A model generated the notes under the pieces. That model was not told the origin of the DNA and did not search any database. It was given only the letters and a program-made list of their open reading frames with translations. A DNA stretch of 64,000 bases from Escherichia phage vB_EcoM_ESCO45: sequence record OM386661.1. The stretch is one strand, 5' to 3'. The stretch's first letter is position 1, and every line of letters starts with the position of its first letter. The position numbers were made by a program, and so were the translations under genes. Below are positions 4,069-5,382 of the stretch, one piece after another.

Positions 4069-4145
4069 GCACCTATAGCCCAACTGGTAGAGGCAGCAGA
4101 CTTAGAATCTGCTCAGTGTGAGTTCGAATCTCTCTAGGTGTACCA
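4069..4145 (+). tRNA. tRNA with anticodon TAG (Leu-type anticodon, short variable loop)
   Basis: 77-nt cloverleaf: acceptor GCACCTA/TAGGTGT, arm GCAGA-CTTAGAA-TCTGC, T-loop TTCGAAT, A73-CCA. Confidence 0.5.
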
Positions 4146-4151
4146 AACATT

Positions 4152-4227
4152 GGGGATGTAGTTTACATGGTTAAAACATAAGTTTTGCAAACTTAAGTAC
4201 AGGGTTCAATTCCCTGCTTCTCCACCA
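4152..4227 (+). tRNA. tRNA-Ala (anticodon TGC)
   Basis: G3:U70 wobble pair in acceptor (Ala identity element), loop TTTGCAA, T-arm CAGGG-TTCAATT-CCCTG, A73-CCA. Confidence 0.8.
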
Positions 4228-4233
4228 ATTAGT

Positions 4234-4308
4234 GCATCCATAGTTTAAACGGGAAAATTACAGTCTTCCAAACTGAGGTTGAGGGTTCGATTCCCTCTGG
4301 ATGCTCCA
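4234..4308 (+). tRNA. tRNA-Gly (anticodon TCC)
   Basis: Acceptor GCATCCA/TGGATGC, loop CTTCCAA, T-arm GAGGG-TTCGATT-CCCTC, CCA encoded. Confidence 0.7.
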
Positions 4309-4315
4309 AATTAAT

Positions 4316-4391
4316 GCTCCTATCGTATAATTGGTTATTACGGTTGCCTTGTAAGCAACTTATCAGGGTTCGAATCCTTGTGGGAGCACCA
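4316..4391 (+). tRNA. tRNA-Thr (anticodon TGT)
   Basis: Acceptor GCTCCTA/TGGGAGC, D-stem CGTA/TACG, arm GTTGC-CTTGTAA-GCAAC, T-loop TTCGAAT, A73-CCA. Confidence 0.75.
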
Positions 4392-4486
4392 ATTCAGAGG
4401 TCAAGTGAAAGACCGCTTGTGTCAACTGAAGACCGTAACAAATTCCACGGAGTTGAGTTAGCGGCACAACTTCAGACCTCTTCCAC

Positions 4487-4561
4487 ACTCGCTTAGTTTA
4501 TATGGTAAAGCACCACCATTACAAGATGAAGAAAAAGGTTCAAGCCCTTTAGTGAGTACCA
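4487..4561 (+). tRNA. tRNA-like, possible Val (anticodon TAC), weak anticodon stem
   Basis: Acceptor ACTCGCT/AGTGAGT, T-arm AAAGG-TTCAAGC-CCTTT, A73-CCA; anticodon stem pairs poorly, may be degenerate. Confidence 0.35.
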
Positions 4562-4562
4562 T

Positions 4563-4640
4563 GTTCCAGTATCCCAATTGGCAGAGGATGCAAGCTCAAA
4601 CCTTGTATTAGTGACGGTTCGAATCCGTCTTGGAACACCA
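4563..4640 (+). tRNA. tRNA with anticodon CAA (Leu-type anticodon, short variable loop)
   Basis: Acceptor GTTCCAG/TTGGAAC, arm GCAAG-CTCAAAC-CTTGT, T-arm GACGG-TTCGAAT-CCGTC, A73-CCA. Confidence 0.5.
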
Positions 4641-4659
4641 ATTTTAAGAGGCTATTTAG

Positions 4660-5217
4660 ATGAGATATTTGAAGTATGCTTCATGGATTTTCCTAGCTTT
4701 ACTAGAACCATTTGCAGCAACCCTAGCAGTCATCTTAGCACCTTTCGTGGTTCCATTCTACAGTGAGAAGAAAGGGCATCTACCTTTTGGATTCAGATGG
4801 ATGGAGACCTATGACAACCCGATTGATGGTGATGAAGGCCACGTTAAAAGATGGGCTAAGATTAGAAAGATTGGTAAGCTGGGTGTCTACATGCAGAGAG
4901 TTGGATGGCTCTGGAGAAACAAAGCTTATAACTTCTCTTACCATGTATTAGGAAGAGATGTAAAAGATGTTACTAAGTGGAAAGGTAATATCAACGTAAG
5001 TTCTGACCCTGAAGATAATCAGACTGGTTATCTCCTAATGTGGAATAGCAATGCTTGGGGATTATTCGCTTTTATCCCATCAATTAAAATCTTTGGTAAA
5101 CAGTTTTACTGGAGAATTTATATTGGATGGAAACTAAAAAGCGTTGTCCCAGAAGAAAGAGCATTCTCAAGGGAAAGAGTTATGTTGGCATTCTTTATTC
5201 ATCCACTGAGAAAGTAA
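4660..5217 (+). CDS. hypothetical membrane protein embedded in tRNA array
   Basis: AAGAGG RBS; N-terminal hydrophobic helix, Trp-rich soluble domain; flanked both sides by tRNA genes. Confidence 0.5.
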   Translation: MRYLKYASWIFLALLEPFAATLAVILAPFVVPFYSEKKGHLPFGFRWMETYDNPIDGDEGHVKRWAKIRKIGKLGVYMQRVGWLWRNKAYNFSYHVLGRDVKDVTKWKGNINVSSDPEDNQTGYLLMWNSNAWGLFAFIPSIKIFGKQFYWRIYIGWKLKSVVPEERAFSRERVMLAFFIHPLRK

Positions 5218-5225
5218 AGATTTAA

Positions 5226-5301
5226 AGGGGATTAGTTTACAAGGTTAAAACCTCGGTCTTTGAAATCGAAGAAGTTGGTTCAATTCCAACATCCCCCGCC
5301 A
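5226..5301 (+). tRNA. tRNA-Gln (anticodon TTG)
   Basis: Acceptor (A)GGGGAT/ATCCCCC, arm TCGGT-CTTTGAA-ATCGA, T-arm GTTGG-TTCAATT-CCAAC, G73-CCA. Confidence 0.55.
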
Positions 5302-5303
5302 AT

Positions 5304-5382
5304 GCTCCATTACTCCAATTGGCAGAGAGGCCAGACTTAAAATCTGTGTTATGTATCGGTTCGAATCCGATATGGAGTACCA
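5304..5382 (+). tRNA. tRNA with anticodon TAA (Leu-type anticodon, 7-nt variable loop)
   Basis: Acceptor GCTCCAT/ATGGAGT, D-loop AATTGGCAG, loop CTTAAAA, T-arm ATCGG-TTCGAAT-CCGAT, A73-CCA. Confidence 0.5.

Follow-up and report, generated by a model that had tools for sequence, protein, structure and literature searches.

Three tRNA-Leu genes of class I architecture in the tRNA cluster of Escherichia phage vB_EcoM_ESCO45

The window analysed here, a stretch of 64,000 nucleotides (nt) from Escherichia phage vB_EcoM_ESCO45 (OM386661.1), contains a tRNA cluster with three tRNA-Leu genes (anticodons UAG, CAA and UAA) that lack the long variable arm of class II tRNAs and have class I (type I) architecture. 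The genes carry the identity elements of leucine, are conserved among related phages, accompany a leucine codon bias of the phage and belong to a widespread lineage of class I tRNA-Leu, and judged from their sequence they probably encode functional leucine-accepting tRNAs of this architecture; we further infer that they are expressed, charged by the host's leucyl-tRNA synthetase (LeuRS) and of benefit to the phage. The window is assigned to Felixounavirus (subfamily Ounavirinae): at positions 2300-6600 it shares 95-97% identity with numerous Felix O1-like phages, whose hosts are Escherichia, Salmonella, Shigella and Citrobacter (365 phage records match), and the annotation of a close relative, phage Alf5, lists these same three tRNA-Leu genes. 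Conserved type I tRNA-Leu genes, three in number, are found in a well-known group of E. coli and Salmonella phages that is used for typing and biocontrol.

In textbooks and recent papers, bacterial tRNA-Leu counts as class II. Type I tRNA-Leu as such is already known from mitochondria and Streptomyces coelicolor, and the three genes have been annotated as tRNA-Leu since 2010; what is added here is type I tRNA-Leu in a host system that is reported not to charge type I, together with its common occurrence among phages. In full-text searches that reached only a minority of subscription journals, we found no description of the class I shape of these or any phage tRNA-Leu, and the paper on phage Sf14, detailed as it is on the orthologues, never uses the word 'variable' (PMC12482277). 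The S. coelicolor paper calls bacterial type I tRNA-Leu rare (PMC6614811).

Architecture of the three tRNA-Leu genes

ARAGORN returned the same coordinates and anticodons for the three genes as the first-pass annotation (Table 1), and a cloverleaf parse bore out its description of tRNAs of 77-79 nt with variable loops of 5-7 nt, A73 and a CCA end. The arms, which had been called clean, do form regular cloverleaves, but a U50.U64 mismatch in the UAG gene and a C27.U43 mismatch in the UAA gene had been overlooked. Common to all three genes are a 7-bp acceptor stem, A9, a D stem of 3 bp with C13.A22, A73 and a CCA end encoded in the gene. In Leu(UAG), which has G1.U72 and A37, the anticodon lies at 4103-4105 and the variable loop (UCAGU, 5 nt) at 4113-4117; in Leu(CAA), with G1-C72, positions 4597-4599 hold the anticodon and 4607-4612 the variable loop (AUUAGU, 6 nt); and in Leu(UAA), again with G1.U72, the anticodon occupies 5338-5340 and the variable loop (GUUAUGU, 7 nt) 5348-5354. 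The D loop is AACUGGUAG in Leu(UAG) and AAUUGGCAG in the other two. The anticodon loops are 7 nt long and contain U33 (CUUAGAA in UAG, CUCAAAC in CAA, CUUAAAA in UAA), and the T loop, UUCGAAU in all three, is able to form G18-U55, G19-C56 and U54-A58.

Misfolding or a wrong manual anticodon assignment, the latter having been considered in the first-pass annotation, is ruled out by ARAGORN, Rfam, RNAalifold and published tRNAscan-SE results for Felix O1 and Sf14. The Rfam RF00005 tRNA model, with a gathering score of 29 bits, matches each gene over its full length (E = 7.6e-11 for UAG, 3.4e-07 for CAA and 3.9e-08 for UAA). The orthologues in Felix O1 were called by tRNAscan-SE as Leu TAG, CAA and TAA with 78, 78 and 79 nt and Cove scores of 52.2, 46.2 and 57.9 (PMC3185647), the isotype models of tRNAscan-SE 2.0 put Leu on top for all three orthologues in Sf14 (67.4, 49.1 and 60.2; PMC12482277), and of the three short Leu genes of Erwinia phage phiEa104, two are listed in its record with tRNAscan-SE scores, 50.3 and 51.5. 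The published calls agree on isotype and anticodon and reveal no long arm. Single-sequence minimum free energy folding was uninformative, as it usually is for lone tRNAs, with z-scores from -0.2 to -1.8 and no cloverleaf for the UAA tRNA; RNAalifold, applied to 19 short tRNA-Leu from phages of different hosts, gave a cloverleaf in which the D stem has 3 bp and the variable loop is short, with compensatory changes in 19 of its 20 pairs.

The canonical features of class II are missing from all three genes: a long arm of more than 10 nt forming a stem-loop is replaced by variable loops of 5, 6 and 7 nt, and where the class II core has G9, G12-C23 and a purine 13 opposite A22 they have A9, C12-G23 and C13.A22. 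By ARAGORN, the parse and RNAalifold they are type I tRNA-Leu, and each of them also has what the S. coelicolor type I tRNA-Leu requires, namely a variable loop of at least 5 nt including nucleotide 48, and U8-A14. As had been observed before, the only class II tRNAs in the cluster are tRNA-Tyr and two tRNA-Ser, on which ARAGORN and the parse agree. Here tRNA-Tyr is an internal comparator, with the long arm retained where the synthetase needs it.

As further comparators we used leuW (UAG), leuZ (UAA), leuX (CAA) and leuQ (CAG) of E. coli K-12 and the tRNA-Leu(UAG) of phage T5. The phage genes resemble these in the length and register of the D arm (a stem of 3 bp, A22 in an unpaired 13.22 position and a loop of 9 nt, AAYYGGYAG), in A73, A15 and U48 and in a variable region ending in GU; moreover, the anticodons UAG, UAA and CAA are common to the E. 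coli host and phage sets, and leuZ also has G1.U72. In contrast to the phage genes, the host and T5 tRNA-Leu are 85-87 nt long with variable arms of 13-15 nt, and their core consists of G9, G12-C23 and R13 instead of A9, C12-G23 and C13. When the variable region is masked, the phage genes are 52-62% identical to host class II Leu and 71-80% identical to the best class I Leu elsewhere. A general trait of coliphage tRNAs was ruled out as an explanation, T5 tRNA-Leu(UAG) being an 85-nt class II tRNA. Overall, the interpretation offered in the first-pass annotation is partly supported: its view of atypical Leu-reading tRNAs holds, as these are class I tRNAs with Leu anticodons in a phage whose hosts have class II tRNA-Leu only, while its premise that bacterial tRNA-Leu is normally class II applies to the hosts but is not universal, short forms being frequent in phages and Actinomycetota.

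Table 1. Positions of the tRNA cluster, the three class I tRNA-Leu genes and the class II tRNA genes of the cluster in the window.
Feature	Position	Strand	Source
Class I tRNA-Leu(UAG), 77 nt	4069..4145	+	ARAGORN; Rfam RF00005 57.3 bits; cloverleaf parse
Class I tRNA-Leu(CAA), 78 nt	4563..4640	+	ARAGORN; Rfam RF00005 44.0 bits; cloverleaf parse
Class I tRNA-Leu(UAA), 79 nt	5304..5382	+	ARAGORN; Rfam RF00005 47.5 bits; cloverleaf parse
tRNA cluster, 18 ARAGORN tRNAs, holds the three Leu genes	2364..6577	all +	ARAGORN
tRNA-Tyr(GUA), 88 nt, 15-nt variable arm	2879..2966	+	ARAGORN; parse
tRNA-Ser(UGA), 90 nt, 20-nt variable arm, class II comparator	3724..3813	+	ARAGORN; parse
tRNA-Ser(GCU), 93 nt, 21-nt variable arm, class II comparator	6404..6496	+	ARAGORN; parse

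Leucine identity, charging and decoding

Leucine identity in E. coli consists of A73, the A15-U48 Levitt pair, G18G19, A20a and tertiary pairs that link the D loop with the T loop, and the anticodon is not used (Giege and Eriani, PMC9976931). The sequence and fold of the long arm are uncorrelated with leucylation and armless E. coli variants are still active (PMC9976931): engineered armless E. coli tRNA-Leu is charged by LeuRS if A73 and the D/T-loop pairs are intact (Larkin et al. 2002, summarised in PMC9976931), although those variants were laboratory deletion constructs whereas the phage tRNAs are natural genes. The identity elements that the first-pass annotation had proposed to check are all present: each of the three genes has A73, A15-U48 (with U48 as the last base of the variable loop), U8-A14, A20a and G18G19 in the D-loop register of the host. 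Pair 3-70 is A-U in the UAG gene and U-A in the CAA and UAA genes, and G3.U70 does not occur. In addition, the synthetases that use A73 and read the anticodon (Val, Ile, Met, Lys, Phe, Pro, Thr and Arg) are not satisfied by the three anticodons according to the identity rules summarised in PMC9976931. Because all determinants are present, G3.U70 is absent and the anticodons are unfit for the A73-using anticodon readers, ordinary leucylation of the three phage tRNAs by the host LeuRS is predicted as the most likely outcome.

The same identity set was followed in IMG/VR by two scans with a D-loop pattern that catches both classes, with ARAGORN run on each returned locus; these scans, like the bacterial genome scan described below, are samples and not censuses, and all counts from them refer to the matches listed. 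The Leu identity set was found in 60/80 and 29/32 short tRNA-Leu of the two scans, as opposed to 4/521 and 7/432 other short tRNAs (p = 6e-60 and 4e-36), with the D-loop part of the set being inflated by the choice of loci through a Leu-type D-loop pattern. A73, U48, position 9 and positions 12-13 lie outside that pattern, and A73 is present in 97% and 100% of the short viral tRNA-Leu. Variable loops of 4 nt are rare in short Leu (2/80, versus 180/521 in other short tRNAs), which matches the minimum of 5 nt that the S. coelicolor type I tRNA-Leu needs by experiment (PMC6614811).

Besides the inflation just mentioned, several points weigh against the three genes being ordinary leucine acceptors. 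In the one study that put the E. coli enzyme (EcLeuRS) to a natural bacterial type I tRNA-Leu, it did not charge this tRNA, the S. coelicolor tRNA-Leu(CAA), and is stated to charge type II only (PMC6614811), the Streptomyces LeuRS being the only prokaryotic enzyme reported to charge both types (Fan et al. 2019, PMC6614811). The S. coelicolor tRNA is similar to the phage genes in its Leu anticodon, its 5-nt loop (ACAGC versus UCAGU) and U8-A14, and it coexists with class II tRNA-Leu in one cell, but it is chromosomal, has C48 and belongs to a synthetase that does not use A73 (PMC6614811), whereas the phage tRNAs keep A15-U48 and A73 and must work with an enterobacterial LeuRS. It is therefore plausible that C48, and with it the lack of A15-U48, explains the failure of EcLeuRS on the S. 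coelicolor tRNA, a feature not shared by the phage tRNAs. Charging of the phage tRNAs may nevertheless be less efficient than that of the host tRNAs, because removal of the arm mainly lowered affinity in Aquifex aeolicus (PMC2377443). Two of the three genes also contain one stem mismatch, in the T stem of UAG (U50.U64) and in the anticodon stem of UAA (C27.U43). Finally, the modification state and decoding accuracy of Leu(UAG) and Leu(CAA) may differ from those of the host, since the former has A37 in place of a G37 that is methylated in the host CUN readers and the latter has C38. Host CUN-reading tRNA-Leu have G37 (the m1G37 site) where the Leu(UAG) loop (4101-4107) has A37, and the host counterpart of Leu(CAA) has A38; A37 with an NAG anticodon is common in viral tRNA-Leu (22/40 short and 14/38 long) and is also found in T5 tRNA-Leu(UAG).

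A further natural case of leucine tRNAs without a long arm is the animal mitochondrial tRNA-Leu(UUR), which is likewise class I with its identity on A73 and A14 (PMC9976931), but which differs in its dedicated mitochondrial LeuRS, its floppy non-canonical structure and its other genetic system.

The window has a GC content of 39.4%. Among the Leu codons of its 52 long open reading frames (ORFs), UUA accounts for 26%, CUU for 28%, CUG for 16%, UUG for 13%, CUA for 11% and CUC for 6%, compared with 10, 9, 57, 11, 4 and 8%, respectively, in 50 kb of E. coli K-12 processed in the same way, and the combined share of UUA, UUG and CUA is 50% in the phage versus 25% in E. coli. The phage tRNAs are thus predicted to read codons that the phage over-uses (UUA, CUA and, if U34 wobbles, CUU) and that are served by minor host tRNAs; the same point was already made for UUA in the Felix O1 paper (PMC3185647). 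The tRNAs for four-codon boxes in the cluster all have U34 (Pro UGG, Ala UGC, Gly UCC, Thr UGU, Val UAC, Ser UGA and Leu UAG), which is the pattern of a minimal decoding set relying on broad U34 wobble.

In the mechanism that we propose, the Leu genes would be transcribed together with the other genes of the cluster; processing would give mature tRNAs whose CCA ends are already encoded in the genome, and the host LeuRS would charge these with leucine. An LeuRS of the E. coli type reads A73 and the shape of elbow and core, ignoring the anticodon and the long variable arm. The elbow and core features to be read (U8-A14, A15-U48, G18G19 at their fixed place, A20a and the D/T-loop pairs) are kept exactly as in host tRNA-Leu, while the arm is absent and the core is rebuilt in ordinary class I style, with A9, C12-G23 and C13 replacing the G9, G12-C23 and R13 of class II. 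After charging, the UAA tRNA would decode UUA and UUG, the CAA tRNA UUG, and the UAG tRNA CUA and CUG and perhaps also CUU and CUC if U34 wobbles broadly, so that the Leu codons served would be those which the phage uses much more than the host and which the host reads with minor tRNAs. If the host LeuRS does charge them, as their sequence predicts, these tRNAs would confirm in nature and in vivo that enterobacterial leucine identity can do without the long arm, and they would offer ready-made compact leucine tRNAs for tRNA engineering. A possible pitfall concerns annotation: genes of this kind might score too low with isotype models that were trained on class II tRNA-Leu from cells.

Conservation, distribution and lineage

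The window allele of Leu(UAG) is 100% identical in 53 phage records and at least 90% identical in 92, while for Leu(CAA) 248 phage records, and for Leu(UAA) 252, have a copy of at least 95% identity, within a surrounding region of 95-97% identity. Variant alleles differ in ways that spare the fold: the CAA allele of VpaE1_ev78 has a compensatory change of C-G to U-A in the T stem and one loop change, and the UAG allele of Henu12 has three altered unpaired bases and one G-C changed to G.U. The distant Ounavirinae of Erwinia have kept short Leu orthologues with the anticodons caa, aag and taa. This pattern of substitution and retention indicates that the genes are under purifying selection.

Felixounaviruses carry two divergent class I tRNA-Leu(UAG) alleles at one position, the window type and the Alf5 type, which differ at 33 of 77 aligned positions (the Alf5 copy lies at 3726-3803 of the fetched locus), and this is why only 92 records come close to the UAG gene of the window. 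In Salmonella phage Si3 the 'tRNA-Leu(UAA)' (KY626162.1, 5124-5202) is a hybrid in which the first 13 nt come from the CAA gene, with Val upstream and Gln downstream; it looks as if the CAA and UAA genes had been fused by a deletion between their D-arm segments, which are near-identical, and two pairs of the hybrid, 7-66 and 11-24, are broken. A sequence 100% identical to the Felix O1-type tRNA-Leu(UAA) is also present in GU169904.1 (62026-62103; Staphylococcus phage SA1), which suggests that this record is mixed or chimeric. Nothing similar to the Leu(UAA) gene was found in the 5,426 complete E. coli genomes searched.

Outside this phage group, a sensitive BLAST search with the UAG gene gave ungapped, full-length matches annotated as tRNA-Leu in phages of Mycobacterium, Streptomyces, Gordonia, Pseudomonas, Klebsiella/Cronobacter, Enterococcus and Prochlorococcus and in a crAss-like phage. 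In the fetched loci of the matched phages, ARAGORN called Leu genes of 74-78 nt in every case, and Ser and Tyr remained long. One array, that of Enterococcus phage Bop, contains a class II tRNA-Leu(UAA) of 86 nt (3825-3910) and a class I tRNA-Leu(UAG) of 76 nt (3993-4068; both positions in the fetched locus) 82 nt apart.

The lengths of viral tRNA-Leu in IMG/VR are bimodal, with 90 short and 95 long genes in the first scan and 36 and 134 in the second, giving 126 short genes out of 355 overall. In arrays of at least five tRNAs there were 94 short and 133 long Leu genes; 33 arrays had short Leu only, 56 long Leu only and 21 both. All Ser genes had at least 82 nt, and all Tyr genes at least 78 nt, except for two that ARAGORN called at 70 and 72 nt. 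After masking of the variable region, the nearest neighbour belonged to the same class for 132 of 153 unique viral Leu genes, a number reached by none of 5000 label permutations, and the concordance was still 109/153 when positions 9, 12, 13 and 23 were masked as well. Short Leu genes on contigs that also carry long Leu were mostly closer to short ones of other contigs. The remodelled core (A9, C12-G23 and C13) was present in three quarters of the short Leu genes of the first scan and in 41-62% of those of the second, versus at most 3% of long Leu; long viral tRNA-Leu had G9 in 100% and 97%, G12-C23 in 100% and 96% and R13 in 93% and 97% of the two scans. These distributions point to at least two subtypes of short Leu, with the window genes in the one with the remodelled core. 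Recent deletion from class II genes of the host or of the same genome was ruled out for the window genes by the masked identities and nearest neighbours; the second subtype, which has a class II-like core, may have arisen by such a deletion.

In bacteria, we scanned one genome per species with a class I-only pattern including U48; the taxonomic make-up of its matches is not quantitative. Most of the matches listed were Actinomycetota, e.g., Nocardioides, Nocardia, Gordonia, Mycobacterium, Rhodococcus, Bifidobacterium, Corynebacterium and Amycolatopsis, and some were Planctomycetota and Acidobacteriota. The bacterial short Leu genes mostly have the anticodon UAA or CAA and show the core signature of the phage genes, and 96 out of 140 were the sole tRNA within a fetched locus of at most 8 kb. 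With the variable loop masked, the window genes are equally close to bacterial short Leu (71-80%) and to the best viral ones. The short tRNA-Leu of other phages and of Actinomycetota share their architecture and often also A9, C12-G23, C13.A22, the AAYYGGYAG loop, an NNAGU or NNGUU variable loop and A73, but they occur with different hosts and in different anticodon sets and include the second subtype (G9, G12-C23). Type I tRNA-Leu hence seems to be far more widespread in bacteria than the single published Streptomyces case.

Readings of the missing arm and the surrounding cluster

Relaxed constraint is the simplest reading of the loss of the arm. Only leucine among the three bacterial class II identities can be charged without the arm, which is why only leucine tRNAs can exist in both forms. 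The question raised is why cells keep the arm while many phages drop it, and the three genes provide a concrete test case for phage tRNAs that might escape defences reading tRNA shape.

Such an escape is the most probable of the alternatives, although we regard it as unlikely. The tRNAs would still accept leucine but would be armless in order to evade toxins of abortive-infection or toxin-antitoxin systems that recognise the long variable arm, so that translation of the phage could go on, and leucine would be the only class II tRNA able to do so, since LeuRS, unlike SerRS and bacterial TyrRS, can do without the arm. According to a 2026 preprint, the abortive-infection toxin AbiEii probably prefers class II tRNAs and MenT1 targets a class II tRNA-Leu. 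MenT3 is a DUF1814 nucleotidyltransferase of the AbiEii family. In the sampled phage arrays Ser is long, Tyr nearly always long and Leu alone bimodal, and the 21 array loci with both Leu classes look like redundancy. Furthermore, phage tRNAs have already been proposed to evade anticodon nucleases (PMC10264068). On the other hand, there is no demonstrated case of a toxin attacking class II tRNA-Leu in phage-infected E. coli or Salmonella, MenT3 disfavours tRNA-Leu, and AbiEii left the tested mycobacterial tRNA-Leu unmodified. T5 and T4-like phages, which infect the same hosts, have retained class II Leu, and variation in Leu alone is also explained by a relaxed constraint on the arm. The same architecture is also a normal single chromosomal gene in many Actinomycetota, and is consequently not intrinsically a counter-defence. 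That arm loss is a recurrent phage adaptation hiding leucine decoders from arm-reading defence enzymes, whether AbiEii/MenT-type nucleotidyltransferases or other effectors, with the three genes as a defence-proof decoding set, is accordingly given only a small chance here; such a set might serve all six Leu codons, given broad wobble at U34 of the UAG tRNA, going beyond a supplement for rare codons.

Mis-charging, by which a synthetase other than LeuRS would place another amino acid at Leu codons, or a role as uncharged decoys, had been suggested in the first-pass annotation and is highly improbable. In its favour, a class I shape and Leu anticodons are an unusual combination for the host, A73 is common to several class I isoacceptors in the E. 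coli identity sets, and A35-A36 of the CAA and UAA tRNAs make up two thirds of the Phe anticodon; the model for such a role is the yeast mitochondrial tRNA-Thr(UAG), which recodes Leu codons. However, the anticodon loops of the phage tRNAs have the normal 7 nt and not the 8 nt of that yeast tRNA, and the absence of G3.U70 precludes alanine identity. The anticodons do not suit any A73-using anticodon-reading synthetase (rules summarised in PMC9976931), in phage arrays the complete Leu determinant set is found almost exclusively with Leu anticodons, Leu is the top-scoring isotype model for the Sf14 orthologues (PMC12482277), and in many Actinomycetota the chromosomal reader of UUA/UUG has this architecture too.

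That the genes are decaying, non-functional relics of class II tRNA-Leu that lost the arm by deletion is hardly credible, for although pseudo-tRNAs are known in phage clusters (the element at 3403-3481 and the 'Pseudo' calls in Felix O1, PMC3185647), two of the three genes have one stem mismatch and the Si3 hybrid has broken pairs, the genes are nearly identical over about 250 isolates with compensatory and loop-restricted substitutions, they encode CCA and have intact cloverleaves, their core is remodelled in a coordinated way and not merely deleted, short orthologues (caa, aag and taa) persist in the distant Erwinia Ounavirinae, and their nearest relatives outside the variable loop are class I and not class II Leu.

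The cluster contains further elements besides the tRNA genes of Table 1. A tRNA-like element at 3403-3481 (+) reaches 33.4 bits with the Rfam tRNA model, above the gathering score of 29, without an ARAGORN call; it has acceptor, anticodon and T arms and an anticodon loop CUUCUAA (UCU, Arg), with 4 nt replacing the D arm and a 19-nt insertion in the variable region, and in relatives this part of the cluster is annotated with 'tRNA-OTHER/Pseudo' features. In the 750-nt gap between tRNA-Tyr and tRNA-Ser, positions 3147-3401 (+) gave Rfam matches resembling transfer-messenger RNA (tmRNA) and permuted tmRNA at 22 and 16 bits, against thresholds of 47, and this segment may be a structured RNA or the remnants of tRNA genes. 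Other Rfam matches below gathering, to Plastid-ycf2 (on the minus strand of two tRNAs) and MIR473, were taken as noise or unexplained.

Directly upstream of the cluster, a 471-aa ORF at 784-2199 (+) carries the Pfam domains DUF2828 and DUF7788; the name given to it in Alf5 is 'RNA-binding protein'. At the equivalent position beside its tRNA array, Gordonia phage Forza encodes a 'Ro-like RNA binding protein', and there may be a conserved link between RNA-binding proteins and phage tRNA clusters. Inside the cluster, 4660-5217 (+) encodes a predicted membrane protein of 185 aa (Pfam DUF7338) and 5605-6402 (+) a protein of 265 aa with DUF7217.

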